A stretch of 64,000 bases of DNA from a virus: IMG/VR virus record IMGVR_UViG_3300018080_000129, positions 1 to 64,000 of that record, one strand, 5' to 3'. Below the pieces are notes generated by a model, which had not been told where the DNA came from, did no database searches, and was given only the letters and a program-made list of their open reading frames with translations. A program made the translations under genes and the position numbers. The number at the start of each line of letters is the position of its first letter. Position 1 is the first letter of the stretch. Of this stretch, positions 1-22,786 are shown piece by piece.

Positions 1-197
1 AACTTCGGGCACATCTCTCGAAGCAATTTCTCAACATCAGGATACTGGTTAATCTTGTCCTGCTCATTCATGCAACAAGCTTCGGCAGCATTCAAATCTC
101 CTCTGCGAAGACAAGCAATCACCGTTCGAACACAGGAAACTCCTCGGCCTTCGTTCTTCGAAGCCTGAAGCTGCTCCAGTTGGTCAATCTTATCCAT
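1..197 (-). CDS. hypothetical protein, runs off the window end
   Basis: ATG at 197 overlapping the upstream gene's end, open frame MDKIDQLEQLQ... to position 1. Confidence 0.55.
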   Translation of the reverse strand, partial: MDKIDQLEQLQASKNEGRGVSCVRTVIACLRRGDLNAAEACCMNEQDKINQYPDVEKLLREMCPK

Positions 198-465
198 GTT
201 TTCTTAGCCACTCCACAAACTTCCACACTTCAGGATGAGCCTTCAATGCTTCAAGAGTATTCAGTTCCCTTTCAAGCTGCTTCTCCGTAAACAACGCATG
301 AATCTGATTCTGACATGGCCTACACAACCATGCCACTCTCGTCCTAACCTCTTGCCTATCAAAGAGTTTCTTGTTCTTTTTGTTCTTGTGGCGCGTCTTG
401 GGAATCAGATGGTGTTTCGTTCGTTTATCAACTTCCCGACCACATAACTCGCAAATCTCTGCCAT
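190..465 (-). CDS. small HNH-family endonuclease-like protein
   Basis: CELC-x-HHLIPK...LCRPC...IH motif; start moved to MAEIC because the longer ORF overlaps tRNA-Ile. Confidence 0.75.
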   Translation of the reverse strand: MAEICELCGREVDKRTKHHLIPKTRHKNKKNKKLFDRQEVRTRVAWLCRPCQNQIHALFTEKQLERELNTLEALKAHPEVWKFVEWLRKHG

Positions 466-477
466 GCCGCTTCCTTT

Positions 478-553
478 TGGTAGGCGCGGGTGGATTCGAA
501 CCACCGGCCTCCCGCGTATCAGACGGACGCTCTTCCTGCTGAGCTACGCGCCC
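478..553 (-). tRNA. tRNA-Ile(GAT)
   Basis: Cloverleaf, loop CTGATAC, GGTTCGAATCC, encoded CCA. Confidence 0.92.
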
Positions 554-570
554 ACAAATTTCTCTGCCCT

Positions 571-598
571 TCTATACGGCAACTGCGAAAAAATTCAA
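571..598 (-). promoter_or_regulatory. sigma70-type promoter TTGAAT-N16-TATAGA
   Basis: Shares TTGCCGTATA..AGGGCAGAGA with the promoter at 23051-23079; lies directly upstream of tRNA-Ile. Confidence 0.65.
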
Positions 599-618
599 CA
601 CTAAAAATGAAAAAGAAA

Positions 619-692
619 TGGTAGCCCTGAGCGGAATTGAACCGCTATACCTCGCGTATCAGACGAGGACTCTACCGTTGAGATACAGGGCT
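619..692 (-). tRNA. tRNA-Ile(GAT), second copy
   Basis: AGCCCTG/CAGGGCT acceptor, loop CTGATAC, CCA. Confidence 0.85.
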
Positions 693-890
693 ACAGCGCA
701 TTCTCATCGACAGGTTCTTCGTAGGCGGGATTTTGTTTTCCAACCCGTCATTCATCTTTGCCGCTACCCGCTCCCTCTTGCTGCTCACCCAATCCAAATG
801 GAGCCTATTCGCGTTGCATCCTCGGTAGTGCAAACGACCCAAAGTCTCCTACCTTAAGCAGTGATGTCCCGACCTTCCTATGAAAATGTT

Positions 891-1052
891 CTACACTTCG
901 AAGCTGTTTACAGCCTGTTCCAATTCGCCTTTCTTCGCAACCAGTATGGCCCCGCTGCAAAGAGGAAGGTCTGGAAAAAGCTTCACAAGGTGATGCAGAA
1001 ACCTGAACTTCCTTGGCTCATCTTCCATAATGGCTTTCAGCTTTTCTCTCAT
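891..1052 (-). CDS. hypothetical protein
   Basis: Short ORF with GAGGAG upstream, just after tRNA-Phe. Confidence 0.45.
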   Translation of the reverse strand: MREKLKAIMEDEPRKFRFLHHLVKLFPDLPLCSGAILVAKKGELEQAVNSFEV

Positions 1053-1069
1053 CCTGCACTCCTCGAAAA

Positions 1070-1146
1070 TGGTGCCGAGGGTCGGAATCGAACCGACGAC
1101 GACCAAGCTCTTCAGGCTTGCGCTCTACCAACTGAGCTACCTCGGC
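1070..1146 (-). tRNA. tRNA-Phe(GAA)
   Basis: Cloverleaf, CAAGC-CTGAAGA-GCTTG, CCA. Confidence 0.93.
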
Positions 1147-1283
1147 AATTCTTCTTGTTCCTCTTTTTCAATATACTTTTCGGCACATTCTGGACAAAGC
1201 AAGTCGCCCATGAAATCATAGGCTCCAGTCTTGCCACACTCGTCACACTTGGCGTCCTTGTTGAAAGGAACATCCCTTGCCAT
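1137..1283 (-). CDS. 48-aa zinc-ribbon protein (not in ORF track)
   Basis: MARDVPFNKDAKCDECGKTGAYDFMGDLLCPECAEK...; two CxxC; RBS GGAGG; stop TAG lies inside tRNA-Phe. Confidence 0.6.
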   Translation of the reverse strand: MARDVPFNKDAKCDECGKTGAYDFMGDLLCPECAEKYIEKEEQEELPR

Positions 1284-1286
1284 CAC

Positions 1287-1565
1287 TCATTCCTCCTTTT
1301 CTTCAGGCCAAGCATTCAAAGCTCCGCGCATCTCGAACTCTTCCCTTTTCTTATCCAGCTTTTCCTGTATGGCTTCGAGAATATCCTGCTTAACAAGCAA
1401 CTCTCCATACCATATCATCAAATTGTCCATGTCTTTGGCTGCTTCATCTGGATACTCACTCCAGTTGTTCATTACATCAAACACACAAGCAGCCAAATGA
1501 TTGGCATCATCGTATAATTCCTCGATGGCCTGAGCCTCCTCTTCGTTCAAGACCTCTTTATCCAT
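1287..1565 (-). CDS. hypothetical protein
   Basis: ORF packed between co-oriented genes. Confidence 0.6.
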   Translation of the reverse strand: MDKEVLNEEEAQAIEELYDDANHLAACVFDVMNNWSEYPDEAAKDMDNLMIWYGELLVKQDILEAIQEKLDKKREEFEMRGALNAWPEEKEE

Positions 1566-2044
1566 TGCTCAAACCTTCTACAAAAGGCATCAAACCTCTT
1601 GTCTTCATCTCTGCCATAAATCCACAGCATTATCTGTTTGGCAAAATCCTCGCACTCTCGCTCAACATTGTCCAAAATCTTCATCGGTGCATCCGGTTTC
1701 TGGTCAGAGTTATGATTACAATCAAAGCCAGCAATAATTCCGTTGCCGTCTTTTGTTCTTTCAAGAAAAGTCACCCCGCCATGAACAACAAACTTACTCC
1801 AAGGAGATTCGTAATAGTCCATGCACTTACTATGAAAAGGGTCTCTGGCAAGTATCACATACCCGCAGTACCAGTTCATGTTAAGATAGAATTTTTGCAT
1901 TTCGGAACTTATTTTCTTATACTTCTTCTCAAGGTCATTTTCCATCACAACCATTTCAACTCCATACTTTCTCCAGACCTTGACAATCAAACAGCTTTCC
2001 GAAGTATCAAATTCCGAATGTGTCAAGAAATTCGCATTTGCCAT
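1547..2044 (-). CDS. phage hypothetical protein (CGYV...HGGVT...GFDCNH motif)
   Basis: Motif pattern I recognise from other phage proteins of unknown function. Confidence 0.65.
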   Translation of the reverse strand: MANANFLTHSEFDTSESCLIVKVWRKYGVEMVVMENDLEKKYKKISSEMQKFYLNMNWYCGYVILARDPFHSKCMDYYESPWSKFVVHGGVTFLERTKDGNGIIAGFDCNHNSDQKPDAPMKILDNVERECEDFAKQIMLWIYGRDEDKRFDAFCRRFEQWIKRS

Positions 2045-2050
2045 GATAGT

Positions 2051-2129
2051 TGGTGGCGAGAGTGGGATTTGAACCCACGCATGACACGGATTATGAGACC
2101 GCCGCTCTACCAGACTGAGCTACCCCGCC
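2051..2129 (-). tRNA. tRNA-Met(CAT), elongator type
   Basis: G1-C72 pair, loop CTCATAA, CCA; lysidine Ile2 identity cannot be excluded. Confidence 0.85.
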
Positions 2130-2137
2130 TTGTCTCC

Positions 2138-2734
2138 TCACTTCATCTTAGCCACATAAAGTGATTCCGGCACCCTGAACGATTCAATGGGCCTGAAAAA
2201 ACCGTCAATAAATGGATGAGTTACATCATTGATGTCATGCAATGCCAACCACGCTCCCTGTCCGAGCAATGACCGAATCGACATCAGATTCATCACTATC
2301 TCCAACTCCGTGTGGCAGCAATCAGCAAAAATGAAACCATACTTCTTCTTCGGAGCTACCTGCCGGAAATCACCTTCAAAGATACTCACTTTATTCAAGA
2401 ACCCATATCGTTCCAGATTCTCCTTGAGCATCCCAATGGCTCTGCCTTCTCTTTCGAGAATCGGTTTAATGTTTCTCTCGAAGTCTGCCAGAGAACCAAA
2501 ACCAACCGGCTGTCCATCCCCAATGCAACCCCCTACGGAGCCATCTTCCATCATTACATAGTCATCAAGACTCTGGTTGAACTCAACCGTGATAAACTCT
2601 TTCTCCTGCTGACTATCCACAATGCCATAAATAATGCACAGAGTAGACAACCCGCACCACGGGCCGATTTCCAATATTGGGCCTTCGCAGGTTCGAGCCA
2701 GAGCATAAAGCATCTGCCTCTCGCTTGGCTTCAT
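2138..2734 (-). CDS. class I SAM-dependent methyltransferase (Methyltransf_24-like)
   Basis: ILEIGPWCGLST, FIFADCCH, ALHD motifs. Confidence 0.8.
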   Translation of the reverse strand: MKPSERQMLYALARTCEGPILEIGPWCGLSTLCIIYGIVDSQQEKEFITVEFNQSLDDYVMMEDGSVGGCIGDGQPVGFGSLADFERNIKPILEREGRAIGMLKENLERYGFLNKVSIFEGDFRQVAPKKKYGFIFADCCHTELEIVMNLMSIRSLLGQGAWLALHDINDVTHPFIDGFFRPIESFRVPESLYVAKMK

Positions 2735-2799
2735 CCAGCCCCAAACACCATCTATCTCGTGCTCGAAGGAAATAGACTGAAGTTCTTCTCTTGTCGTCT

Positions 2800-3267
2800 C
2801 TATCTCAGTCCCTCCCGTTCCCTGAAAAGCAACAGGAACGCAAGTTCTTTTTGACCCTCTCTGCTATTCCAGTAATCTCCTCTCGCTTTCTCATTACGAT
2901 ACTCTGTGATTCTCAAACTCAGGTAACGACGCATCCGTGTCTCAGTTTCTTCCTGAGTCTCGTTTCTCTCTCCCCAAAGTTGCAACTGCCTTTCCGTATG
3001 GCCGAACTCGTCAATCTCCACATCGTTCATCTCAAGCCATAGTTTCTTGTATTTCTTTCCGTGTTGACGCTTAAGCTGCATCAACCTTTTCAGGATTGAC
3101 CCAAGCTCTATTTCCACATCGCTTCCACCAAGAAAATGAGCCAGCTTCTCTTGAACTTTTCTCGGCTTCGAAGACCATCTGGAAGTATCCTCAGCATCAT
3201 AGTGAGAATCCTTTCCTCTCACGTAGTCTTTGAAATCCTTTAGCTTCATCCTGTTTCTCTTCGGCAT
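2800..3267 (-). CDS. hypothetical protein
   Basis: ORF with GGAGG RBS. Confidence 0.6.
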   Translation of the reverse strand: MPKRNRMKLKDFKDYVRGKDSHYDAEDTSRWSSKPRKVQEKLAHFLGGSDVEIELGSILKRLMQLKRQHGKKYKKLWLEMNDVEIDEFGHTERQLQLWGERNETQEETETRMRRYLSLRITEYRNEKARGDYWNSREGQKELAFLLLFREREGLR

Positions 3268-3278
3268 CGGTCTTCCTC

Positions 3279-4082
3279 CTATTTGCCCAATAGCAAACTC
3301 TTTGTAATGCGCCTTGGAATCTTTGCCCTGACTTTTGCCTCCATTGCCTTCATTGCTTTCTTGCCTTTCCCGCTCTTAAACCACTCAGAAAATTCCCTCA
3401 ACTCCTTCCAGAAATTTTCGACTTCCACAAGCTTTTTCCTCTTACTCCGCTGCATCCAAAGCCTGTCCTTTGCGATGCTTCTGACTCTCTGCCGCCGATT
3501 CGGTATGTACTTCAAAGCCTCCGCTGCGTGAACCACAGGATAATACTTCTCAGTACAATCGGCACCGTAACCATTCAAAGAAGGAACGGCACAATAATCG
3601 GGCAAAGCTTTGTCCCAATCACGACATCTTCTTTCCCAATCCTTCTCAGAAAGCTCATCAGGCTTATCCGTGTTATCCCAATAGCCGTATTCCTCAACAA
3701 ACCACTTGGAAAGCCAAAGCTTCCTGAAGTCCTCCTGCTCGGTAAAATACATTCCAAGCACCTTATCTTCAGAAAGAGGAAATATCGCAAGCTCGAAATC
3801 GAAATCGAAAATGGGATTTCTTTCCTGCGTCTTGTCAATTTTCCTTTTCTCCTCGTTCAGCTTACTCCAAGCACAAGCCAGCGGACAGTCACTTGAAGGC
3901 TCCTGAACTTTCATTCCCATTGCCAGCCGGTCGATACGATGAGTCGCCATCTCAGCCACCAACCGAGAACACTTTTCCAGCACCAGTGCTTTCAATTCCT
4001 TTCTGAATGCCTGAATCTGATGATGAATCACAAGAAGATGCGGGTTCCTGAACTTGAATCCTGTGTAGATTTTAGTGCTCAT
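3279..4082 (-). CDS. phage hypothetical protein
   Basis: 267-aa ORF, MSTKIYTG start, YGYWDNTDKPD motif. Confidence 0.7.
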   Translation of the reverse strand: MSTKIYTGFKFRNPHLLVIHHQIQAFRKELKALVLEKCSRLVAEMATHRIDRLAMGMKVQEPSSDCPLACAWSKLNEEKRKIDKTQERNPIFDFDFELAIFPLSEDKVLGMYFTEQEDFRKLWLSKWFVEEYGYWDNTDKPDELSEKDWERRCRDWDKALPDYCAVPSLNGYGADCTEKYYPVVHAAEALKYIPNRRQRVRSIAKDRLWMQRSKRKKLVEVENFWKELREFSEWFKSGKGKKAMKAMEAKVRAKIPRRITKSLLLGK

Positions 4083-4199
4083 CTCTGTCCTTTCGGCTGT
4101 CGGCGCGTATCATTGCCGCTCTCGATGTCCCTCAATTCGCGCTTGTACTGTTCATTATATGGCGAATTAGGAAAATTCTCAACCAAAAACTTCAGGAAG

Positions 4200-4697
4200 T
4201 CACTCCGTTTCTTCTTCTGCTTCATCTTCCATAGCCTTTCGATTCGCTTCCTCTTGGTCAGGGTCAACTACCATGTGCTGAATTTCCACAGACTCATACT
4301 GATATTTGTCCCTGTCGCAAAGACACTCGTAGGCCATCTGACCGTCCTGCTTCTCCAGAGCCTGCTTCATACGCTCGTACCACTTGCAATAGTTCTGATA
4401 GTCGTGAAGGTCTATTGCAAGCGAACCAATCTCGCCCTGCATGAAATCGCGAATGTGCTCGTCTCTGACCTTCTCCTTGTCTTCCCTAAGTTCCTGAAGC
4501 TTTTCTTCGGTTGGAGGTTTCTTCCAAAGCTTCTTCGGCTCTGGATAGAAACCTTCCCTGAGCCGTTTCTCCAGCATCCAGAGACAGACCTTGAAGAATT
4601 TCTCCTTGGCCGGAACATGACAGATTATCTCACCATGCTTTTCCTTGAAGAAAAGGAGGCGGGAAGGGTTGTCTTCTTCAAGCCATTTCATTCTCAT
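4200..4697 (-). CDS. hypothetical protein
   Basis: ORF with AGGAG RBS after tRNA-Tyr. Confidence 0.65.
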   Translation of the reverse strand: MRMKWLEEDNPSRLLFFKEKHGEIICHVPAKEKFFKVCLWMLEKRLREGFYPEPKKLWKKPPTEEKLQELREDKEKVRDEHIRDFMQGEIGSLAIDLHDYQNYCKWYERMKQALEKQDGQMAYECLCDRDKYQYESVEIQHMVVDPDQEEANRKAMEDEAEEETE

Positions 4698-4716
4698 GTC
4701 ATCATCTCCTTACGGA

Positions 4717-4803
4717 TGGTGGAAGGGGTGGGATTCGAACCCACGAAGGCGCAATGCCACCGGATTTACAGTCCGGCCCTTTTAACCACTCAGGCACCCT
4801 TCC
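4717..4803 (-). tRNA. tRNA-Tyr(GTA)
   Basis: Long variable arm, CCGGA-CTGTAAA-TCCGG, CCA. Confidence 0.93.
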
Positions 4804-5426
4804 TTCTTGTCGCCTTTCTCGATATTGCAATCCGTACACATCGTCTGGTAATTCTTCAGACGATTCTTACCGCCTTTTGCCAAAGGAACAATATGGTCTT
4901 TCGTCATCAGCACTTCCTCTCCATCCTTTACGGCATAGAGATTCAAATGATAACCACTGTTTTCTGCAAAGTGTCGTTCGACTGCAAAGAATTTTCCTTC
5001 GATGCCACAATGCACACACTTGGTTCCATGCTTAGCAAAACAACGAAGGCGGTCGGAAGCCATCTTCACCCGCTGGCCGAAATACTCTTTTCTCTGGCTT
5101 CTCCTATCACGACAATCAAAAACCACGAAGGGAAGCACTTCTTCAAGCGGAACCGTTCCAAGTCGCTGATAGACCGGCCTGTTCTTTTTCGGCAGTATTT
5201 CCTTCTTTTCCTTCTGTGGCTCGTTGGCATCTTCCGGCCAACCTCTTGCACATTTCCAGCAACGCCTACGGTAAGCGTTCGTCTCTCCGTAGATGTCTGT
5301 CTTGATATTCAGCCAATGCCCGCACTCAAGAACTTCGACTATCACAGCACTATTTCTCGGATGGCAACGATGACCTGTTATCTTCCGCAGCGGAGCCTTC
5401 TTGATGTCGATTCTTTCTTCCATCAT
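4782..5426 (-). CDS. HNH endonuclease
   Basis: CVHC...TKDHIVPLAKGGKNRLKNYQTMCTDCNIEKG. Confidence 0.85.
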   Translation of the reverse strand: MMEERIDIKKAPLRKITGHRCHPRNSAVIVEVLECGHWLNIKTDIYGETNAYRRRCWKCARGWPEDANEPQKEKKEILPKKNRPVYQRLGTVPLEEVLPFVVFDCRDRRSQRKEYFGQRVKMASDRLRCFAKHGTKCVHCGIEGKFFAVERHFAENSGYHLNLYAVKDGEEVLMTKDHIVPLAKGGKNRLKNYQTMCTDCNIEKGDKKEGCLSG

Positions 5427-5596
5427 TCCTCGCTTACCCGCACTTTGAACTTCTTGCCTCCAACTGCTATCTGGAAGTTATCATCCCATCCAGCCGTCAC
5501 AACCACCCTCTCCTTGTATTCTTTCACCATTGTATTACTGCCCTTAGCCAAAAGCCGGACTAAATCGTCAGCTATCGTCTCCTTCATTGGAATCAT
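5423..5596 (-). CDS. hypothetical protein
   Basis: Start 1 nt after the upstream stop; ATGA coupling downstream. Confidence 0.5.
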   Translation of the reverse strand: MIPMKETIADDLVRLLAKGSNTMVKEYKERVVVTAGWDDNFQIAVGGKKFKVRVSEE

Positions 5597-5823
5597 CTCA
5601 CACGTCCTTGTAGTCTGCCGCCAATTTGTGCTCAAGTTCGTAAGGACATCTCTTCGGAAGATAATTGCCATCTTCAGAAAGCCATGCCTTGCCCTCCCCC
5701 ACCAACTTACAAGACCAAACCTTCACAGCCACTCGACCTGTGTTATTGTTCCTCACAACAATGTAAGAACTACACTGTTGACAAACCGCCTTGCTTTTCG
5801 GCATTTCACACGTCCTTGTAGTC
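5594..5823. repeat. 22-bp direct repeat catYtcacacgtccttgtagtc (5594-5615 and 5802-5823)
   Basis: Read directly from the sequence. Confidence 0.85.
5598..5804 (-). CDS. small Cys-containing protein flanked by direct repeats
   Basis: CQQC...C...CPY; ends DYKDV like the upstream ligase. Confidence 0.55.
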   Translation of the reverse strand: MPKSKAVCQQCSSYIVVRNNNTGRVAVKVWSCKLVGEGKAWLSEDGNYLPKRCPYELEHKLAADYKDV

Positions 5824-6906
5824 ACTGTGCTTGCCAAGAGAATACTCAGTGCCGATGTACTTCAGCACCACCCTGCCGATTTTCACATGATTCCTCTCAT
5901 GCACCGGCTTCACAACCACGCCTTCCCGACAATGATTCGCATTCGGCATAATGCTCTGGCCGTCCGCGACCTCATTGATTTTCTCGAAGTAGAACGGCCC
6001 TCGATAAATCACAGGCACCTGCTCAATTCCGAATGCAGTGCAATAGCTGGCAAACCCGTCGTAATCCAGATACTTGCCGTTAATCTTCAGGTCAAAGGCC
6101 CTGTAACCGAATCCTTTGCCTTTCTCGTAGCCGTATCCCAAACTCTGAATGCTCCTGCCATAGACTTCGCCGTAAAGAATAACACTGCGACCGCCTTCGG
6201 CAAGAGTCAGAAGCAAACGTCGAACTTTTTCGATGCTCCAAGGACTCCAGTAAATATCGTGCTTGACCTTGTTGCTGTCCCATTCGCAGGGAATTTCCTT
6301 ATCGACTCCATGTGTGTCGATTTTCTCTCTCGGACGCTGCTTCCGAGTCGTATGAGAACCAGCCACGGGACAGCCATTGATGATGCCAACCCGCGAGTTG
6401 GTGCCATGAATCTTCTCGGTTGCTATGACCTCTTCTCCTTCTTCAAATATATCTATAAACAATTTTCCATTCTCGATGTCGGTGTACTCCTCGAAATATG
6501 GGTCGATGTTCCCGTCATACGCAGCCATGTTCTGAACACCCGGTCGAATCGGAGGCTCATATTTGGTTGCCCCGAAATAGTCCGCAACGTTGTCTCCAAG
6601 CTTCCAATCCTGCCCTTCGGGAATATCCACCACCAGCCCGAATGATGGCTCACCACGCAGCTTGATTTTGCCCACGCGGTCTTTGTTCTTACCCCTGAGA
6701 AAGTTCCTGACCTCGAACTTCTCAGCCCATTCAGCAGGCAGGAGAACGTCAGCGGGAAAATAAACCCCGACATCTCCGTCCTTGTACCTGCCCTTGGGAA
6801 CGCACATCTGATAGCCGAGCACGTCACAGATTTCCAGCTTGTCGGCATTCGGATGTGGCCTTACATTTTTGAGTTCCACAACAGGAACAACACAGCTACT
6901 TGCCAT
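5806..6906 (-). CDS. ATP-dependent RNA ligase (DRB0094/Rnl2-like) with N-terminal OB-type domain
   Basis: N-terminal HPNADKLE, motif I TEKIHGTN, GEVYG, AFD, REGVVVK, VLKYI. Confidence 0.88.
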   Translation of the reverse strand: MASSCVVPVVELKNVRPHPNADKLEICDVLGYQMCVPKGRYKDGDVGVYFPADVLLPAEWAEKFEVRNFLRGKNKDRVGKIKLRGEPSFGLVVDIPEGQDWKLGDNVADYFGATKYEPPIRPGVQNMAAYDGNIDPYFEEYTDIENGKLFIDIFEEGEEVIATEKIHGTNSRVGIINGCPVAGSHTTRKQRPREKIDTHGVDKEIPCEWDSNKVKHDIYWSPWSIEKVRRLLLTLAEGGRSVILYGEVYGRSIQSLGYGYEKGKGFGYRAFDLKINGKYLDYDGFASYCTAFGIEQVPVIYRGPFYFEKINEVADGQSIMPNANHCREGVVVKPVHERNHVKIGRVVLKYIGTEYSLGKHSDYKDV

Positions 6907-7243: not shown

Positions 7244-7464
7244 CTCACACCCGCTTTTTTTGCCATGATTCTCAGCCTTTCGAAAGTGGTTTCTCATAAC
7301 ACGGACGGTTGAACCAAGGATGAATCAGCTTACCGTGTTTCGGCCCTTTGTTGGGTTCTTTCTCCATCCCAACAAACACCGCACCTTCAGGCAAATCAGT
7401 ATACCAAGGTTTACCGTTCAACACACACAAAGCATTGCCTGCCATGAGTCTTTGCCTTTCAAAA

Positions 7465-15876: not shown

Positions 15877-15886
15877 CTTTCAAAGT

Positions 15887-15963
15887 TGGTCGGGGTGGCC
15901 GGATTCGAACCGGCGACCTCAACATCCCAAATGTTGCGGGATACCAGACTTCCCTACACCCCG
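15887..15963 (-). tRNA. tRNA-Pro(TGG)
   Basis: CAACA-TTTGGGA-TGTTG, CCA. Confidence 0.92.
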
Positions 15964-16427
15964 ATTTCCTCCACTGCAACCACATGAAATTTCCCGTAGA
16001 TTCCGCGCTTCCAGCCAAACGGAGAGATGCCAAAATAAGAACCCGCCATCTCCAGAATGGCTTTGAACTCATTCACAGGAAGACTCTCCGGCACCAAAAC
16101 CCGAACAATAATCTTGTCTTGCGGCAGAAAAGATTCATGCACCTTGAACGCCTTGACGCCTTTGAAATAGTACCAGCGTTTATAGAGCTTGACATCTCCC
16201 ACCACTTCAGGTCGCCACATCACCTTCCTGACCTGCTCGGAATAGTCTTTGTTCTTCGGATTTCTTTTGAAAGCCTCTACCGCTTTGAAAAGAAGTGTGT
16301 CCCACCAGATTTGTCTGAAAACCACTTGTTTGTCAGAATTGTAGAGCATCTTGTTCGGCAGTGGGTCATCAAATCTCTCGTTTCCAAGACATGGTTCGTC
16401 GAACTCCAGCGTGATTCTCAACTCCAT
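15954..16427 (-). CDS. hypothetical protein
   Basis: 157-aa ORF; stop inside tRNA-Pro. Confidence 0.65.
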   Translation of the reverse strand: MELRITLEFDEPCLGNERFDDPLPNKMLYNSDKQVVFRQIWWDTLLFKAVEAFKRNPKNKDYSEQVRKVMWRPEVVGDVKLYKRWYYFKGVKAFKVHESFLPQDKIIVRVLVPESLPVNEFKAILEMAGSYFGISPFGWKRGIYGKFHVVAVEEIGV

Positions 16428-16450
16428 AGTGTCACCTTTTTCCTGTTAGG

Positions 16451-16528
16451 TGGTAGGCGAGGCGGGACTCGAACCCGCAAGCCTCTGATTTTAAGTCAGA
16501 GAGGTATACCAATTCCCATCACTCGCCC
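16451..16528 (-). tRNA. tRNA-Leu(TAA), short variable region
   Basis: TCTGA-CTTAAAA-TCAGA, CCA. Confidence 0.88.
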
Positions 16529-16674
16529 TCAAATCCCCTGTTTCCTCAACCACTCGTCAATCTCGGCAAGAAGCTCGTCATCCGTCCTCCCCGTTATGGG
16601 AATATGAACAATCTTATCCTGCTCCCTTTCCTCTTGTATTCTCTTCCTGAGTCTTTCCAGCTTTTCCTCGTCCA

Positions 16675-17631
16675 TTATTCTCCCAAGACATAAGCAAAAA
16701 TCAAAGGAGCCACAATGGAGGCATCCGAGTTAATCATGTACTTCGGCGTATCCACATCAAGCTTGTGCCACGTGATTTTCTCATTGGGAATCGCGCCGGA
16801 ATAAGAACCGTAAGAGGTCACGCTGTCGCCTATCTGAGCGAAATATGCCCAATACGGCGTATCTTTCTTCTTCACATCCTGAATAAGCATTGGAACCGCG
16901 CAGATTGGAAAATCGCCCGCTATTCCCCCACCTATCTGAAAGAAACCCACGGGAGTATTTTGTTGATACCATTCGGCAAACACCTGCATCTGCTCGGTTC
17001 CATATCGAACCGCCCCATGCCCCTTCAAAGTCTTATTCAAAACCTCCGCACAGTAACGATTGGCAAGAGTCGAATCTTCCCAACCCGGCGTGAGAATCAT
17101 CAGTTCCTTTTCCTTTGCTGCGTACACCCATGAATTCTGCGGGTCAATGTCAAACCGCTCCTGCATTTCCGGCTCATCCAGCAGCCTGTAGATGTATTCA
17201 TAAGGAAAATAGGACTCTTTTTTTTCAATCGCTTCCACCCACATCCTAAGTATCATTTCGCCAATATAGAACATAGCCGCTTCAGGAATGCAGGTATCTG
17301 TGACCCTATTGAAACCTCTATCTCTCAATCCTTTCTCATCTTCCAAAGAAAGGTCTCTGTACTTCGGGACAAACTCGTATTCGCTGTTACAGAGCAAGTT
17401 GAACACGTCCTCTTCAAGGTTGGCTCCCGTTGTGCAGATACAATGAACTTTGTCCTGTCGAATCATTTCGGCCAGAGAAATGCCAAGTTCTGCCGTGCTC
17501 ATGGCACCACCCATAGCCAAAAACATTTTGCCGCCGCCTTCCAGCAGGTCTTTCCATCCAATTGCCGCATCCAAAGTTTCACGGGCATTGAAATGCTTGA
17601 AGTGTTTCTCCATGAAATCTGAAACTTCCAT
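16675..17631 (-). CDS. deoxyhypusine synthase-like protein (bacterial DHS/homospermidine synthesis type)
   Basis: HFNA, GAMSTAELG, CTTGANLEED, FNRVTDTCIPE, IGGGIAGDFPIC, GSYSGAIPNEKITWHK; RBS GGAGG at the corrected start. Confidence 0.92.
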   Translation of the reverse strand: MEVSDFMEKHFKHFNARETLDAAIGWKDLLEGGGKMFLAMGGAMSTAELGISLAEMIRQDKVHCICTTGANLEEDVFNLLCNSEYEFVPKYRDLSLEDEKGLRDRGFNRVTDTCIPEAAMFYIGEMILRMWVEAIEKKESYFPYEYIYRLLDEPEMQERFDIDPQNSWVYAAKEKELMILTPGWEDSTLANRYCAEVLNKTLKGHGAVRYGTEQMQVFAEWYQQNTPVGFFQIGGGIAGDFPICAVPMLIQDVKKKDTPYWAYFAQIGDSVTSYGSYSGAIPNEKITWHKLDVDTPKYMINSDASIVAPLIFAYVLGE

Positions 17632-17649
17632 ATTGTCCTCCAAAGAGAT

Positions 17650-17739
17650 TGGTGCGCAAGAGAGGATTCGAACCTCCACGCTCTTGAAATGAGCATCAGG
17701 CCCTCAACCTGACGTGTCTACCGGTTCCACCACATCCGC
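17650..17739 (-). tRNA. tRNA-Leu(GAG), two acceptor-stem mismatches
   Basis: TCAGG-TTGAGGG-CCTGA; acceptor GCGGATG/CTTGCGC. Confidence 0.8.
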
Positions 17740-17740
17740 A

Positions 17741-18268
17741 TTACTGCTTGCAATTGAAACATTCCCAATCGCCATCTGGATTACCTGCCTCCCATGTATC
17801 CACCATCTTGCTTCCACAAAAAGCGCATACAGGAGGGCCAAAACGCTTTGCCATGTCCTGTCTAAACTTGTGCCGGTACTCCGGCTCTGTCAAACCTGAT
17901 TCCTTCACCCGCTTTTGATAATCCGCTTCCATTATCTGCAAACGCTGCTCACTATACATCATCTTGTACCACTGCTCAGCACCAATGGAGGGTTTCCAAT
18001 AATGAGCGTAGCCACAAGTACAAATCCCGTCCGTGATTTGACAATTCTCCATAGCAGCGTAAAAGGTGCAATCCCCGTCATGCCTCGTCCTGACACGCTT
18101 GCCAGTGATATAGGCCACATTCTTGTCTACTTTGGCAGAGAAAATGTCAGGATGTTCCAGCAGATACTCAGCATCCTCTTCGCTGACTTTGACCCACCGG
18201 CAGATGTCTTCGTTCACGGAAATGCTGTAGAAAAAATCCGTGCAGTCCCGCCAGTTTCCTTCTGACAT
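17741..18268 (-). CDS. Cys-rich hypothetical protein
   Basis: CTCG, CAFC, CFNC; RBS AGGAG. Confidence 0.6.
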   Translation of the reverse strand: MSEGNWRDCTDFFYSISVNEDICRWVKVSEEDAEYLLEHPDIFSAKVDKNVAYITGKRVRTRHDGDCTFYAAMENCQITDGICTCGYAHYWKPSIGAEQWYKMMYSEQRLQIMEADYQKRVKESGLTEPEYRHKFRQDMAKRFGPPVCAFCGSKMVDTWEAGNPDGDWECFNCKQ

Positions 18269-18286
18269 GACTTTCTCCTGAAAAGC

Positions 18287-18363
18287 TGGTGCTCAGGGAG
18301 GGATTCGAACCCTCAATAACTCGGTTCTAAGCCGAGCGCGTCTGCCAGTTGCGCCACCTGAGC
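18287..18363 (-). tRNA. tRNA-Leu(TAG), short variable region
   Basis: CTCGG-CTTAGAA-CCGAG, CCA. Confidence 0.88.
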
Positions 18364-18720
18364 TTAAATGTTGAGCTTTTTGAGATTCTTCAGATGAGCT
18401 ACTGCCTGCTTGTAACCTGCCGCCGCAGGCAATAACCGCTCGATAGCCCTTTCCAAAGCTCGACACAAACGTCTATGAACAATTCTCCTGAACTTCCTCG
18501 CTCCCAAGCCATACTCGTGCATTGTGAAACGAAATTGTTCCACCACGCCATGCTCACCATCTTTGTCCAAATCGACATCTACATCAAAAAGCACCGCTCT
18601 CTTCCAATGGTCAGGCGTGTCATCGTTGACCTGCACTCGATACACCTGCCCCGGAGGGTATCCAAGATTGCGAACGATGAATCTTACTCTCTCACCAAGT
18701 TGTTTCGTTGTCATTGCCAT
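18364..18720 (-). CDS. hypothetical protein
   Basis: RBS AAGGAG; stop abuts the tRNA. Confidence 0.65.
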   Translation of the reverse strand: MAMTTKQLGERVRFIVRNLGYPPGQVYRVQVNDDTPDHWKRAVLFDVDVDLDKDGEHGVVEQFRFTMHEYGLGARKFRRIVHRRLCRALERAIERLLPAAAGYKQAVAHLKNLKKLNI

Positions 18721-18795
18721 GATAAGGCTCCTTTCGTTAAGGCCCTACCCGACAATTCCTCCAGCGGTGGAAGTCATGGCTTTTCTCCTTGAAGT

Positions 18796-18883
18796 TGGTG
18801 GTCGAGGAGGGAGTTGAACCCTCACGCTCTTAATGAGCACGGAACCCTGAATCCCGCGTGTCTGCCGATTCCACCACTCGACC
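18796..18883 (-). tRNA. tRNA-Leu(CAG)
   Basis: CGGGA-TTCAGGG-TTCCG, long arm, CCA. Confidence 0.9.
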
Positions 18884-18884
18884 A

Positions 18885-19370
18885 TTAGAGTGCTTTCAAA
18901 AACCTGACATCATGCAACATGCTCACCACGGTCGTCTGAGGACGACGCTTGGCGAAGTCGAACCGATGATTGAACATCGGAAAGACATCATTGTATCCGT
19001 ATAGATGAGCGAAACAGGAATCGTGACAGACCAGATATTTCGCCTTATCCTTCAAGGCCCGTATCGAAGTCGCCCGATTCAGACTGTCCCCGTGGTCAAC
19101 CAGAACCACGTCCCATTCCTCTTCATACTCAGGAACGCTGCACCAGTCCTTGACATGATGAAATGTGTGGAATGAACTCGTCATCCAAGAAAACTGATTC
19201 AACCAGTTCATGTCTCCTTCCAAAGAGACCAATTTTCGATTCTGGATGGCGCAGATTCCATGAAGCCAAAGAGAACTCCCCCAACCGCAGCCAAGCTCCA
19301 ATATCGGGCCAGTTGTGGCTGTCACCACGGCGGCAAGTACAGGCTGATGAGAAAAATACTCAGGATTCAT
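18885..19370 (-). CDS. SAM-dependent methyltransferase-like protein
   Basis: ILELGCGWGSS, DVVLVDH, VCHD. Confidence 0.75.
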   Translation of the reverse strand: MNPEYFSHQPVLAAVVTATTGPILELGCGWGSSLWLHGICAIQNRKLVSLEGDMNWLNQFSWMTSSFHTFHHVKDWCSVPEYEEEWDVVLVDHGDSLNRATSIRALKDKAKYLVCHDSCFAHLYGYNDVFPMFNHRFDFAKRRPQTTVVSMLHDVRFLKAL

Positions 19371-19528
19371 CCGTAAAGCTCTGTCTCAATTTCCTTGCAA
19401 ATCTTCAGACAATCCTCGTTCGATACCTCGAAGGGCACGACAACGGAATAATGAGGGTCTTCAAAAGACTTGCGCATCTCCGTCCTCAAATGAATTTCTT
19501 GCTCTTCTGTCATCTTTTCCTCTCTTTG

Positions 19529-19617
19529 TGGTAGGAGCGGTGGGAGTCGAACCCACACGGAACTTGCGTTCCCCTGATTTTGAATCAGGTGTCTCTTGCC
19601 AGTTGGACTACGCTCCC
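19529..19617 (-). tRNA. tRNA-Leu(CAA)
   Basis: CCTGA-TTCAAAA-TCAGG, long arm, CCA. Confidence 0.9.
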
Positions 19618-19628
19618 ACTTTTTCAAA

Positions 19629-20192
19629 CTACTCACGCACAGGATATAGATACGTCACAAAACAAATCGCCGCCAAGACCGTGCCGTATTCCTTATCGAC
19701 AATCAAGTCCTTGATGGCAAACTCGAAATCGAACACTTCCACCACGGCATTGTGATAACGCCTTTTAATAATGCCTTTCAGGTCGTTCTCCAGTATCTTC
19801 TTTGCCTTTTCAGAAGAAGCAAATCCTTCATACTCGGCAGCAAACCCACCGATAAACTCTCCCCCGACTTTCACCTTGCAGCGTCCTACTCCCGCACAAA
19901 TATGCTGACCCTGCTCACCGTTCATCTGAGCCATAATAGTTTCCAACACTGCTCCATGATGAAAGTATTCCTGAGCCTCTTCCAATGTGATTTCCTCGGC
20001 CTCAGGCGGCATGACACTGGTATATTTGACCACGTTGAAGTTCTCAATCTTGGCTTCCAGTAAAGCCAAATCGTAAGAACCCGTCTCGAAATGGTCGCTG
20101 CCTGCATCCTGCGTAATCTGCCCCGCTCCTGTTGTCACAAAGAAGTGATGAGGAATGCGATTGAATGTCTCGATGAGTCTTTTTTCTGCCAT
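19629..20192 (-). CDS. pyruvoyl-dependent arginine decarboxylase
   Basis: SYDLALLEAKIENFNVVKYT/SVMPP self-cleavage motif, HGAVLETIMA, GFAAEY. Confidence 0.88.
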   Translation of the reverse strand: MAEKRLIETFNRIPHHFFVTTGAGQITQDAGSDHFETGSYDLALLEAKIENFNVVKYTSVMPPEAEEITLEEAQEYFHHGAVLETIMAQMNGEQGQHICAGVGRCKVKVGGEFIGGFAAEYEGFASSEKAKKILENDLKGIIKRRYHNAVVEVFDFEFAIKDLIVDKEYGTVLAAICFVTYLYPVRE

Positions 20193-20216
20193 ACATGTTC
20201 TCCCCTCTATGTAATA

Positions 20217-20292
20217 TGGTGGAGGTAGAGGGATTCGAACCCTCGGCCTCAAGCTTGCAAAGCTTGCGCTCTCCCAATTGAGCTATACCCCC
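20217..20292 (-). tRNA. tRNA-Ala(TGC)
   Basis: G3:U70, loop TTTGCAA, CCA. Confidence 0.93.
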
Positions 20293-20420
20293 AATCTTGA
20301 AACCCATTGAGGGCCGGAGTCCCGCACCAGAACACGACTCCGGCCCTCCCGCTATTGCCGGAAGACCGTGCGCCGATTACAGGCGCACATCGTTGCTGAT
20401 TGGGTTTTGTCTCTATTCTT

Positions 20421-20434
20421 TTGTCAAAGAACGA
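20421..20434 (-). promoter_or_regulatory. boxA-like element TCGTTCTTTGACAA
   Basis: Resembles the rrn boxA consensus. Confidence 0.5.
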
Positions 20435-20443
20435 CTTATGAAC

Positions 20444-20698
20444 TCAGCTTTTCTCGCGTAAAATACAAAGCATCTCGTTGAGTTTCCTTGGTGTCATTCC
20501 ATAGATGTCCTTCACGTCAAAGCTGAATCCATGACTGGCAAGTATTTTCACTAACTCAACATTGCCAGTGTAGACAGCGAAATGCAGCGGACTCCAGTGG
20601 TATCTTTTCCATGCGTAGATGCCGTTTGACTTGAGAATCCTTTTCTCGTCATAACGACCAAGCAGAACCTTCATCCGCTCTTTTTCGCCTTGTTGCAT
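20444..20698 (-). CDS. single ankyrin-repeat protein
   Basis: WSPLHFAVYTGNVELVKILASHG...DIYGMTP. Confidence 0.75.
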   Translation of the reverse strand: MQQGEKERMKVLLGRYDEKRILKSNGIYAWKRYHWSPLHFAVYTGNVELVKILASHGFSFDVKDIYGMTPRKLNEMLCILREKS

Positions 20699-20770
20699 TT
20701 GGGTTTCTCCAATTACAACCTATAGGATTATACCCACTTACCGCCTTTCTTCGACGGTTTTCTTGAAAAA

Positions 20771-20846
20771 TGGCAGGCGGTGCAGGATTCGAACCTGCCT
20801 CTCCAGATTCGTAGTCTGGTGTTCTCTCCAGCTATACTAACCGCCC
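20771..20846 (-). tRNA. tRNA-Arg(ACG)
   Basis: CCAGA-CTACGAA-TCTGG, CCA. Confidence 0.9.
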
Positions 20847-21053
20847 ACAAACCCTTTTTCTTTTGATACGAACAACCGTCATTTCCTGAACCGGCCAGCC
20901 TGCGGCCTTTTTTGCAGCCTTCAACGCAAGCTTCCTGTCGCAGTCCAAAATCTTTGAAGTCTTATAGGAGGCGGCAAGCACCCGCCCATCCCGAACGCAT
21001 TCCTCAATTTCGGGACGTGTCATTATCCAAAGAGCCATTTCTTTGTAATCCAT
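20832..21053 (-). CDS. hypothetical protein
   Basis: RBS AGGAGG; stop inside tRNA-Arg. Confidence 0.55.
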   Translation of the reverse strand: MDYKEMALWIMTRPEIEECVRDGRVLAASYKTSKILDCDRKLALKAAKKAAGWPVQEMTVVRIKRKRVCGRLV

Positions 21054-21072
21054 GACGACCTCCTTTCTTTTC

Positions 21073-21146
21073 TGGAGCGGCCTACGGGAATCGAACCCGT
21101 GCCTTAACCTTGGCAAGGTTACGTGCTACCTCTACACCAAGGCCGC
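21073..21146 (-). tRNA. tRNA-Gly(GCC)
   Basis: TAACC-TTGCCAA-GGTTA, CCA. Confidence 0.92.
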
Positions 21147-21149
21147 TTA

Positions 21150-21223
21150 TGGCTCCCCTGCCTCGATTCGAACGAGGAACACGAGGTTCAAAGCCTCGCA
21201 TGTTGCCGTTACACCACAGGGGA
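21150..21223 (-). tRNA. tRNA-Gln(TTG)
   Basis: U1-A72, CGAGG-CTTTGAA-CCTCG, CCA. Confidence 0.92.
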
Positions 21224-21226
21224 ATA

Positions 21227-21301
21227 TGGCTGGCCTGTCAGGACTTGAACCTGAAACTCTTGAGTCAGAGTCAAGTGTGATGCCAATTTCACCACAGGCC
21301 A
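21227..21301 (-). tRNA. tRNA-Gln(CTG)
   Basis: CTTGA-CTCTGAC-TCAAG, CCA. Confidence 0.92.
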
Positions 21302-21302
21302 A

Positions 21303-21378
21303 TGGCTCCACGGGCAGGTCTCGAACCTGCAACAACCCGGTTAACAGCCGGATGCTCTACCAATTGAGCTACCGTGGA
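21303..21378 (-). tRNA. tRNA-Asn(GTT)
   Basis: TCCGG-CTGTTAA-CCGGG, CCA. Confidence 0.93.
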
Positions 21379-21384
21379 ACATGT

Positions 21385-21398
21385 TTTTCAAAGAACAC
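21385..21398 (-). promoter_or_regulatory. boxA-like element GTGTTCTTTGAAAA
   Basis: Close boxA match directly before a four-tRNA cluster. Confidence 0.55.
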
Positions 21399-21732
21399 TG
21401 AAAAGCAATGCCATCTCAGCCATCAACCGTTTCTCGCTCTTCTCTTCAAGACCTTTCAGAAACCTATCCAGAGCATCGGCGTCATGCTCTTCCGTCCTGA
21501 TGGTCTTACAGGGCAGGTCAATGACAAAAGCATTGAACCTGCCACGAGGAGTCTTGCCCTTTAATGCCTTTATGACGGAATCATTGCTGAAACCAAGCGG
21601 AACAGCCTTGCCGCCGATAACCGCATTGAGGTCATCTTCATAATGGCCCCAAGATGCGCCACAATGACAAGTCCTTTTCTCAAGAAGCAGCTTGAGAACA
21701 TCCTCGCATTTCGGACAAAAAATGAGCTTCAT
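21388..21732 (-). CDS. zinc-ribbon hypothetical protein
   Basis: CPKCED...CHCG. Confidence 0.65.
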   Translation of the reverse strand: MKLIFCPKCEDVLKLLLEKRTCHCGASWGHYEDDLNAVIGGKAVPLGFSNDSVIKALKGKTPRGRFNAFVIDLPCKTIRTEEHDADALDRFLKGLEEKSEKRLMAEMALLFSVL

Positions 21733-21746
21733 TGCTCTTTCCTTTT

Positions 21747-21824
21747 TGGCGGGACTGACGAGACTCGCACTCGCTTTACTCTTCCGTGACAGGGAAGCGG
21801 CTCGACTCCTTCGCCCTCAGCCCC
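21747..21824 (-). tRNA. tRNA-Asp(GTC), atypical D arm and T-loop TGCGAGT
   Basis: CTTCC-CTGTCAC-GGAAG, CCA. Confidence 0.8.
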
Positions 21825-21955
21825 AAAAATTCGGAGCTACTTTATCAGCACATTGACAGAGTGCCACCCTGCCCTGTTTGCGTCAATTTCACTCCCGGTT
21901 CCCGCTTTCTGAATGGCTGGTTCATACTCGCTAAAGAACCGTTTGGTTGTCAAAG

Positions 21956-22029
21956 TGACCCTGACGGGACTCGAACCCGTAATTTCTACCTTGAAAGGGT
22001 AGTGAGTTAGCCTGTTACTCTACAGGGCC
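21956..22029 (-). tRNA. tRNA-Glu(TTC), no encoded CCA
   Basis: CTACC-CTTTCAA-GGTAG. Confidence 0.9.
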
Positions 22030-22033
22030 ATAA

Positions 22034-22171
22034 TCCAGTACCGAAAATCGCAGAGAGGACTGTAACGTCGCTCTACCACTAAGCTACCGCCCATCAAAGT
22101 TGGGCGGGTTGGAATCGAACCAACGTCTACGGCTCCCAAAGCGAAGTATCTCTCCACTGGAGCGTACTGGA
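22034..22171 (-). ncRNA. YrlA-like Y RNA (circularly permuted tRNA-mimic module)
   Basis: Closing stem TCCAGTAC/GTACTGGA; internal order is T arm (GTTGG-TTCGATT-CCAAC), loop-closed acceptor stem (CCGCCCA-ACTTTGA-TGGGCGG), D arm (GCTT-AGTGGTA-GAGC). Confidence 0.82.
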
Positions 22172-22179
22172 AACTATAA

Positions 22180-22261
22180 ACTTCCAATACCGATAAGCGC
22201 GACAGGACTCGGTTTTCCTTAACAGGGAAGAAGTAACCCGTCACTGGAGCGTACTGGAAGT
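22180..22261 (-). ncRNA. second Y-RNA-like (YrlB-type) RNA with an anticodon-like hairpin
   Basis: Same 18-nt 5' arm TTCCAGTACGCTCCAGTG as its neighbour, long terminal stem, internal TTCC-CTGTTAA-GGAA hairpin. Confidence 0.72.
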
Positions 22262-22456
22262 TTTTTGAGAAAGAACGTTTTCTGCTTCGGTCTCATACAC
22301 AATGCTGCCACCACTGGCCTCAATGGTCTCTCGTCTGACCATGTATTCAGCAATCATCAGATGGCTATTGTCTGCGTCCACCTGAATCACCAAAGCTTTC
22401 TTGCCCGTGGTCTCCGTGTATTTCTCGGCTATTGCCTTTGCTTCCTCGAACTTCAT
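22241..22456 (-). CDS. hypothetical protein
   Basis: Short ORF. Confidence 0.5.
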   Translation of the reverse strand: MKFEEAKAIAEKYTETTGKKALVIQVDADNSHLMIAEYMVRRETIEASGGSIVYETEAENVLSQKTSSTLQ

Positions 22457-22691
22457 TGCGAATCTTTTCCTCTCTTACTGTATTGAATAGCGGGCTGCTA
22501 CATCCAGCCCCAAACGCGGGAGATGACCACGAATTCGGGTCTTTGATTATCTCCTCATACTTGCTACAAAGCTTTTCCTTTGTCAAAAATCTGCACTGCT
22601 TCTTTTCTACATCCCATTCGCCATAAGGACAGGCGCGTACTGTGCAGCAATAACCGCACTGAACACAGGGATATTTCTCGGCATACTCCAT
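22365..22691 (-). CDS. YkgJ-like cysteine-cluster protein
   Basis: CVQCGYCC...C...CRFL...C..Y. Confidence 0.65.
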   Translation of the reverse strand: MEYAEKYPCVQCGYCCTVRACPYGEWDVEKKQCRFLTKEKLCSKYEEIIKDPNSWSSPAFGAGCSSPLFNTVREEKIRNEVRGSKGNSREIHGDHGQESFGDSGGRRQ

Positions 22692-22711
22692 ATCATAATC
22701 TCCGGCATCGT

Positions 22712-22786
22712 TGGCAGGAGAGCCGGGACTCGAACCCGAATCCAAGGATTTGGAATCCTTGATGCTACCAATTACACCACTCTCCT
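22712..22786 (-). tRNA. tRNA-Trp(CCA), first gene of the array
   Basis: AAGGA-TTCCAAA-TCCTT, CCA. Confidence 0.92.

Follow-up and report, generated by a model that had tools for sequence, protein, structure and literature searches.

A tRNA-punctuated gene island in a very large phage: probable joint transcription of tRNA supply and RNA maintenance behind a candidate leader

Phage tRNA arrays are now understood as replacing host tRNAs that were destroyed by defence nucleases, and to our knowledge the expression of such arrays is almost unstudied. A counter-defence role of phage tRNAs has been reported (PMC10264068, PMC11464382, PMC11555353), and jumbo phages combining tRNAs, RNA ligases and TROVE proteins have already been described (PMC7824862). 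In Salmonella, the rsr-yrlBA-rtcBA RNA repair operon is induced through RtcR by tRNA halves (PMC7790460). Here we describe positions 190-22786 of IMG/VR virus record IMGVR_UViG_3300018080_000129, a gene island in which tRNA genes, an RNA ligase gene, two Y-RNA-like genes and a candidate miniature RNase P RNA lie among open reading frames (ORFs) on one strand. An earlier note on this DNA had taken the region for a translation-rescue island induced through an attenuator. We consider it fairly probable that the island is a co-transcribed, tRNA-punctuated block of tRNA supply and RNA maintenance belonging to a very large phage.

The window analysed, 64,000 nucleotides, is the first 64 kb of one 103.5-kb viral contig with 47% GC and nearly every gene on the minus strand. 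CheckV classifies the record as linear and 31% complete, so the whole phage probably measures ~330 kb; the island itself is truncated, continuing past contig base 1. By the curated map, genes take up 93% of 190-22786 and follow each other head to tail on a single strand. Junctions between genes have a median length of 8 nt, and only 11 out of 75 reach 60 nt or more. From an ORF to the next tRNA the median gap is 1 nt, with overlap at 7 of the 19 junctions of this kind, and from tRNA to tRNA it is 3 nt. The gap from a tRNA to the next ORF (18 nt) leaves room for just a Shine-Dalgarno (SD) sequence, and SD sequences sit 6-24 nt past the tRNAs. Seven ORFs have their stop codon within the following tRNA, several of them using a TAG at tRNA positions 8-10. 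The features concerned are:

478..22786, minus strand: 29 tRNA genes, on which ARAGORN and Rfam agree
1137-1146, 7531-7540, 8783-8792, 15954-15963, 4782-4803 and 20832-20846: ORF ends inside tRNAs, including those of an HNH and a helix-turn-helix (HTH) protein and of one ORF with a homologue in phage G001

An ORF that stops inside a tRNA can be read only from a transcript containing that tRNA, and joint tRNA-mRNA precursors are thus required by the sequence. RNase P cutting would strip the stop codons from such overlapping mRNAs; the phage also encodes a transfer-messenger RNA (tmRNA, 96660-97015).

We propose that transcription of the island yields a small number of very long precursors, mRNAs punctuated by tRNAs, and that RNase P (the host enzyme, a phage mini-ribozyme or both) and a 3' endonuclease would cut these precursors apart. 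Transcription would enter at 23079-23051, pass a leader mini-ORF and a strong terminator, and then run to the contig end. Further transcripts of the distal part would start from the promoters at 4182-4154 and 598-570; weak promoters near 20730 and 8290 may contribute as well. The main job of the block would be to provide a near-complete tRNA set of the phage's own, making phage translation independent of a host pool that may fail when codons are mismatched, the host is shut off or defences cleave its tRNAs. Accessory RNA processing and quality control would fall to the RNase P RNA, the ligase and the Y RNAs with their Ro60. The protein genes would for the most part be cargo, gathered in a region that is permissive and rich in endonucleases.

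The tRNA set consists of Trp, two Glu, Asn, two Gln, two Gly, Arg(ACG), Ala, five Leu (anticodons TAA, GAG, TAG, CAG and CAA), three Pro (CGG, GGG and TGG), Ser(GCT), His, Asp, two Lys, Val, Tyr, Met/Ile(CAT), Phe and two Ile(GAT) genes that differ from each other. The ARAGORN and Rfam calls bear out what had first been read by eye, namely co-orientation throughout and the presence of all five Leu, all three Pro and both Lys, Glu and Gln anticodons. The count, given as 30, comes down to 29, and a tRNA-like domain in one of the Y RNAs may account for the supposed thirtieth. A 3' CCA is encoded by 26 of the 29 genes. The rest of the 103.5-kb contig adds a single tRNA, Met at 91198; Thr, Cys, Ser(UCN) and further Arg isoacceptors were not found on this contig, off whose end the island runs. 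Bacterial tRNA-Leu is expected to have a long variable arm. Both tRNA-Leu(TAA) (16451-16528, minus strand, 78 nt) and tRNA-Leu(TAG) (18287-18363, minus strand, 77 nt) are without it, and the unrelated phage G001 likewise has a short tRNA-Leu(TAA) of 76 nt.

With standard wobble, the set reads ~77% of the codons in phage ORFs of at least 100 amino acids. Codon compensation only, in which a 47% GC phage on a GC-rich host would supply tRNAs for A/T-ending codons, agrees with a phage GC content at third codon positions of ~0.50 and with the GC-rich genomes of the Desulfovibrionaceae, the likely host group. As the whole explanation it is nevertheless very unlikely. G/C-ending and rare codons are served alike, and coverage extends to every box of Leu, Pro, Gly, Lys, Glu and Gln, down to CTA (3% of Leu codons) and TTA (5%). 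Such reach into the rare codons makes simple codon compensation insufficient, and it would leave RNase P RNA, Y RNAs and ligase without a role.

How the proposed precursors would be started and stopped is indicated by the following elements:

23051..23079, minus strand: sigma-70-type promoter at the island head, TTGAAC-17-TATAAT
22894..23016, minus strand: leader mini-ORF of 40 codons from a GTG or 39 from the adjacent ATG, with GGAG upstream
22836..22867, minus strand: intrinsic terminator of the leader, a 14-pair stem plus T8, 49 nt before tRNA-Trp
4154..4182, minus strand: best internal promoter candidate, TTGAGA-17-TATAAT (11/12), in a 117-nt gap
570..598, minus strand: internal promoter directly before the second tRNA-Ile, TTGAAT-16-TATAGA

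The coding strand of the contig has ~10 strong TTGAnn-N16-18-TATAAT sites, of which the head promoter is one, and 22867-22836 is the only canonical coding-strand terminator in 1-24000, the 103.5-kb contig having ~9. No recognisable promoter lies in the 49 nt between this terminator and tRNA-Trp. The mini-ORF uses all 20 amino acids, which is seen in 0.3-0.6% of same-length windows from phage proteins or random composition draws. The final codons of the ORF are able to form a helix with the terminator 5' half. When the transcript cut before the terminator 3' half is folded, an antiterminator helix of ~16 bp appears; with a ribosome masked at the stop codon, the terminator forms. Of four mid-ORF positions at which the ribosome was masked, three still allowed the 9-bp core of the terminator hairpin to form. 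In sequence and folding, the element thus has the layout of a leader-peptide attenuator: a promoter, an SD with a short ORF, a terminator, and a competing antiterminator that overlaps the ORF.

Taking the leader for an attenuator is reasonable but unproven, and on-demand induction of the island, purely conjectural as it is, would rest entirely on this element. Stalling for any charged tRNA would then bypass the terminator, and tRNA replacement, repair and modification would be co-induced. The GGAG-preceded ORF with its rare composition, the alternative helix at the ORF end, tRNA-Trp lying 49 nt past the terminator, and the next ~14-18 kb, which hold no strong promoter or terminator, all fit this scheme. 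A cellular precedent exists in the damaged-tRNA-induced RNA-repair operon with Y RNAs and a ligase (PMC7790460). We nevertheless find the scheme doubtful, since the core terminator persists in most mid-ORF ribosome positions and the distal 4 kb has promoters of its own; part of the gene content, described below, also speaks against it.

That not everything depends on the attenuator had been recognised before, and the promoters at 4182-4154 and 598-570 indeed free the distal 4 kb from the leader. This segment holds tRNA-Met, tRNA-Phe, both tRNA-Ile, the RNase P RNA and one methyltransferase. The second of these promoters, previously placed at 571-598, looks real, being a paralogue of the leader promoter that matches it in 16 of 18 bases around the -10. 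A further one proposed at 9519-9540 went unmatched in both sigma-70 scans. Additional weak candidates with a -10 only occur near 20730 and 8290. Overall, sigma-70-like sites in the island are not enriched over shuffles (14 versus 11.4 expected; 6 versus 11.8 expected). TTGAAn-N16/17-TATAGA sites precede RNA genes at 570-598 and at ~97364-97390, ~350 nt upstream of the tmRNA, while protein operons have TATAAT, and these sites may be a distinct promoter class.

The absence of a strong terminator from 22.8 kb to the window start, the other transcriptional feature reported earlier, holds in so far as none was found; it does not go beyond chance, zero terminators in 22.8 kb having a Poisson probability of ~0.14, and the neighbouring 43546-to-22841 stretch (20.7 kb) is terminator-free too. 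With a plus-strand GC skew of -0.14 to -0.29, the transcribed RNA has much G and little C, and from what is established about rut sites it is expected to be a poor Rho substrate.

The same elements can be arranged differently. The leader could be a free-standing small-RNA gene whose terminator also ends the upstream 20-kb operon, in which case the island would be driven by leakage or unrecognised promoters and its contents would be unintegrated mobile cargo. A promoter-~200 nt-terminator small-RNA unit does exist in the same phage (77456 to 77236, around a third Y RNA), and no terminator lies between the upstream genes (43.5 to 23.1 kb) and the leader terminator. However, an all-20 ORF with an SD, whose end pairs with the terminator, would be unexpected for a plain small RNA, and at most junctions a separate promoter would not fit, given the ORF-tRNA overlaps and gaps of 0-25 nt. 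On balance, we regard this arrangement as unlikely.

Besides tRNAs, the co-transcribed block that we favour appears to include a ribozyme for their maturation:

706..907, minus strand: miniature RNase P RNA, catalytic domain only (RF00010, 32.9 bits, E 4.6e-7 in a 23-kb search by a permissive Rfam scan)

This RNA of ~200 nt occupies a 198-nt gap after tRNA-Ile, within the tRNA array, and its RF00010 alignment runs end to end over the model. The core blocks AGGAAGGUCGGG, AGAUGAAUG and ACAAAAUCCCGCCUA and the CCA-binding L15 GGU are present, with posterior probabilities of 9 to * for the blocks flanking P4, the J18/2 block and the L15 GGU. The specificity domain is gone, ~110 S-domain model positions being replaced by a short hairpin insert. 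An nhmmer search with the mini RNase P RNA gave zero matches in 80 viral ligase loci (see below), phage G001 had no RF00010 match, and a literature search turned up no paper describing phage RNase P RNAs. RnpA and a CCA-adding enzyme were not found on the 103.5-kb fragment.

In both tRNA-Lys genes (7465-7540 and 10261-10336, minus strand) the T-loop is AGCAAAG or AGCGAAG, respectively, instead of TTCRANY, and AG replaces GG in the D-loop; in every other tRNA of the array the T-loop is canonical. As tRNA-Lys is a known target of PrrC and PARIS (PMC11464382, PMC10264068), this deviation can be counted in favour of the attenuator scheme. Deviant-elbow tRNA-Lys together with an RNase P RNA that has no elbow-reading domain makes defence evasion an attractive reading, in which the link between the two is one that we infer. 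Carried further, the island would be a self-contained, demand-switched translation back-up: a leader peptide requiring all 20 aminoacyl-tRNAs would gate one giant tRNA-punctuated precursor that also includes Y RNAs and a ligase, its ribozyme, free of elbow recognition, would accept the deviant tRNA-Lys, and stop-codon loss would couple processing to the phage tmRNA. Taken as a whole, this combination strikes us as improbable.

A second group of RNA genes is shared between the island and a distant part of the contig:

22030..22262, minus strand: two tandem Y-RNA-like genes, by YrlA match and fold
77185-75386, minus strand: TROVE/Ro60 ORF (62.7 bits)
77303-77385 of the contig, minus strand: third Y-RNA paralogue, sharing a stem module with both island copies
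96660-97015 of the contig: tmRNA

The suspicion of two Y-RNA-like genes in the island is confirmed by the match of one unit to YrlA (RF02553, 31.3 bits, with E values of 0.003 for the 23-kb search and 4e-5 for a local one), by folding, in which both units form closed stems (z = -5.0), and by the stem module common to the third paralogue. In the unit at 22030-22172, a permuted tRNA-like domain composed of a T arm, a closed acceptor-like stem and a D arm lies within a long terminal stem. The third Y RNA is situated ~120 nt upstream of the Ro60 ORF on the same strand, is flanked by a strong promoter (77456-77429) and a terminator (~77236), and is preceded by a type I-C CRISPR-repeat-like hairpin. 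Its stem halves, AGTACGCTCCAG...TACTTC and GCGCTTATYGGTAYT, recur in the island Y RNAs, and this module most likely represents the Ro60-binding helix, as far as can be judged from the shared sequence. Bacterial Y RNA genes are normally found no more than 4 kb from the Ro60/TROVE gene, on the same strand (PMC4201824); those of the island are 53 kb away from it. Both tmRNA and Ro60 belong to the 75-97 kb region, outside the island, which has strong promoters and terminators of its own, and this separation argues against a single induced rescue unit.

The third RNA-related component is the ligase, whose presence among the tRNAs had been noted earlier and is confirmed by family and domain matches:

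5806..6906, minus strand: ATP-dependent RNA ligase of the DraRnl/NgrRnl (Rnl5) type (TIGR02306, PF09414, OB domain)

The protein scores 175.8 bits against TIGR02306, above the curated cut-off of 151.15, and consists of an N-terminal OB domain (PF21189/PHA02142, residues 9-93) followed by a PF09414 nucleotidyltransferase domain (158-351). It aligns to NgrRnl (5COT) with an E value of 7.5e-15, and its KxxG adenylylation motif, EKIHG, is invariant across three phage homologues. Its only family match at this level is DRB0094; Rnl2 and TIGR01209 fall below cut-off, and it is not an Rnl1. In the Rnl5 family, the established activity is the sealing of nicks with 3'-OH and 5'-phosphate ends in duplex RNA. 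A nick-sealing enzyme of this kind does not point to repair in the T4 sense, and neither a P-loop polynucleotide kinase (PF13671, AAA_33) nor RtcB was found on the 103.5-kb fragment, ~31% of the genome; a ligase for which the fragment offers no healing enzyme weakens the case for co-induced repair. The ORF at 6896-7297, upstream of and overlapping the ligase gene, is HTH-like at best, judging from weak protein-atlas leads.

A profile search with the ligase returned 322 viral loci, the best 80 of which were checked for tRNAs within 10 kb: 38 of these 80 have at least one tRNA and 11 at least eight. The three nearest homologues (57, 57 and 51% identity) come from big phages that are otherwise unrelated, and each has 12-19 tRNA genes no more than 10 kb away. 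Such recurrence of ligase and tRNA array in unrelated phages is not what mere mobile cargo around a small-RNA gene would lead one to expect. Phage G001 (210 kb), which has the closest ligase, shares only 4 proteins with the contig and therefore offers no guide to synteny. Among the nearest loci, one includes a YrlA-like match; in another, the ligase gene adjoins a tmRNA, and the same genome encodes Ro60 at a different place. A side observation in the tRNA array of L089, the contig with the closest ligase homologue, is a twister-P1 ribozyme-like match (17975-18029, minus strand) scoring 46.6 bits versus a gathering threshold of 67.2.

The protein genes of the island give a different picture from the RNA genes: the proteins are not enriched for translation functions, whereas the RNA genes are. 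About 30 of the 44 island ORFs have no family of known function in PHROGs, Pfam or NCBIfam. The remainder include the following, listed together with one non-coding gap:

2138..2734, minus strand: Methyltransf_24-type S-adenosylmethionine (SAM) methyltransferase, a firm assignment with no NCBIfam or PDB match
4200-4697, minus strand: weak methyltransferase candidate, E 0.006 and below cut-off
4782..5426, minus strand: HNH endonuclease whose stop codon lies 22 nt within tRNA-Tyr
12336..13496, minus strand: methyltransferase with a DNA-methylase-like (N6_N4_Mtase) C-terminal part, no PDB match
13499..14041, minus strand: nucleoside 2-deoxyribosyltransferase-like protein
13951..14580, minus strand: class I SAM methyltransferase of small-molecule type, a firm assignment
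15331..15876, minus strand: helix-hairpin-helix (Ogg-like) DNA glycosylase-like protein
16675..17631, minus strand: deoxyhypusine-synthase-like (DS-like) protein of the homospermidine / bis-guanidino-aza-nonane synthase kind, by family matches
19629..20192, minus strand: pyruvoyl-dependent arginine decarboxylase (ArgDC), which makes agmatine, by family matches
20293..20443, minus strand: structured non-coding gap of 151 nt, a candidate small RNA with a closed multi-branch fold (-67.6 kcal/mol, z = -6.3)

An HTH protein and an ankyrin-repeat protein are encoded as well. Where three SAM methyltransferases of non-DNA type had been proposed, two are firm; 4200-4697 stays below cut-off, and 12336-13496 is in part DNA-methylase-like. 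The best methyltransferase matches are to CpaM, UbiE/MenG, DVU_1556, BioC, ArsM and, in the PDB, YcgJ, all small-molecule enzymes. No match to Trm, Cmo or other RNA families was obtained, weak FtsJ, RrnaAD and NpmA matches all remaining below cut-off. A role in tRNA modification is thus not borne out, and methyltransferases that are not of tRNA type, together with ORFs that are mostly orphans or DNA enzymes, count against co-induction through an attenuator. The HNH and HTH cassettes and the many orphans would instead suit the cargo expected if the leader were a plain small-RNA gene.

The polyamine enzymes mentioned earlier are present, and to judge from family matches the DS-like protein and ArgDC would form a coherent agmatine-based pair. 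Cellular relatives of the DS-like protein with 65-69% identity occur in Desulfovibrionaceae, Desulfohalobiaceae and related sediment metagenome-assembled genomes (MAGs), and homologues at 88% and 73% identity also exist. To judge from this identity, its gene is a recent capture from cells, and its cellular likeness suggests a host near the Desulfovibrio group. Such a capture, from cellular neighbourhoods without ArgDC, would also be in keeping with cargo. Copying of a host DS-ArgDC operon was rejected, since ArgDC was never found at 6 kb or less from DS in the 64 cellular loci examined. The MAG contigs L077 and L079, with partial DS matches of high identity, were likewise rejected as phage relatives; both are cellular, and DS alone matches.

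As for the non-coding gaps, none of 200 shuffles was as stable as 20293-20443, which has no U-tail and no Rfam match; the fold of the gap at 21733-21954 is not more stable than those of shuffled sequences. For the orphan at 11518-12339, a single-sequence AlphaFold model was uninformative (predicted local distance difference test, pLDDT, 33).

Several points weigh against joint transcription and RNA maintenance as the purpose of the island. Both key RNA matches lie below their Rfam gathering thresholds (RNase P RNA, 32.9 bits versus 100; Y RNA, 31.3 versus 69). Promoters and terminators are consensus matches only, and the sigma-70 scan is blind to phage-specific promoters. The homologous locus in L089 has its ligase on one strand and its tRNAs on the other, so ligase-tRNA co-location does not always mean co-transcription. 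No near relative of the island was found in deposited phages, IMG/VR or JGI contigs: megablast of the island against INPHARED phages gave zero matches, and searches with the DS-like protein and with the orphans 11518-12339 and 3279-4082 among viral contigs, and with an orphan among metagenome contigs, yielded only one distant match of 29% identity.

At the RNA level, the translation-support content is richer than the earlier note listed, with a mini RNase P RNA and Y RNAs that have their Ro60 partner elsewhere in the genome. The island would present a candidate translation-sensing leader ahead of one long tRNA-mRNA precursor, a phage RNase P ribozyme without an elbow-reading domain beside altered-elbow tRNAs, and Y RNAs made from a tRNA precursor with Ro60 encoded elsewhere. 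If the gating were true, this would be the first known attenuator controlling tRNA supply as a whole; if it were false, the locus would, by its sequence, still illustrate tRNA punctuation clearly, in a virus of bacteria.

Compared with known systems, the island resembles the tRNA regions of T4-like, T5-like and jumbo phages with RNA-repair genes (reviewed for jumbo phages in PMC7824862) in its many co-oriented tRNAs among small ORFs and homing endonucleases. With these regions it also shares an RNA ligase, a TROVE/Ro60 protein with a tRNA-like partner RNA, found in a subset of them, and a proposed role against tRNA-cleaving effectors. It differs from them in that its ligase is an Rnl5 rather than an Rnl1, Rnl2 or RtcB, with no kinase/phosphatase partner found in the fragment, and in having its own mini RNase P RNA, two Y RNAs, a mini-ORF/terminator leader and ORF-tRNA overlaps. 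The nearest cellular analogue of an inducible unit of Y RNAs and ligase is rsr-yrlBA-rtcBA, where these lie in one transcription unit and expression is likewise thought to answer tRNA damage. That operon is without tRNA genes. In the phage, Ro60 is encoded 53 kb away from the island, there is no RtcB on the fragment (RtcA and RtcR were not searched for), and the proposed sensor is a translated leader, not a CARF-domain activator.

The candidate RNase P RNA has the catalytic-core blocks, P4 strands and CCA-binding GGU of bacterial type A RNase P RNA (RF00010), in contrast to which it measures ~200 nt and is without the specificity domain. With the trpL, hisL, leuL and thrL attenuators, the leader shares a promoter, an SD and short ORF, alternative helices and an intrinsic terminator before the regulated genes. 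Unlike these, the candidate leader has all 20 amino acids and no single-codon run, and it would regulate tRNAs instead of biosynthetic enzymes. Finally, as in mitochondrial tRNA punctuation, tRNAs abut protein genes with almost no spacer and their excision would release mRNAs; the phage version differs in being of bacterial type, with SDs 6-24 nt after the tRNAs and with several ORFs that would lose their stop codon on RNase P cleavage.

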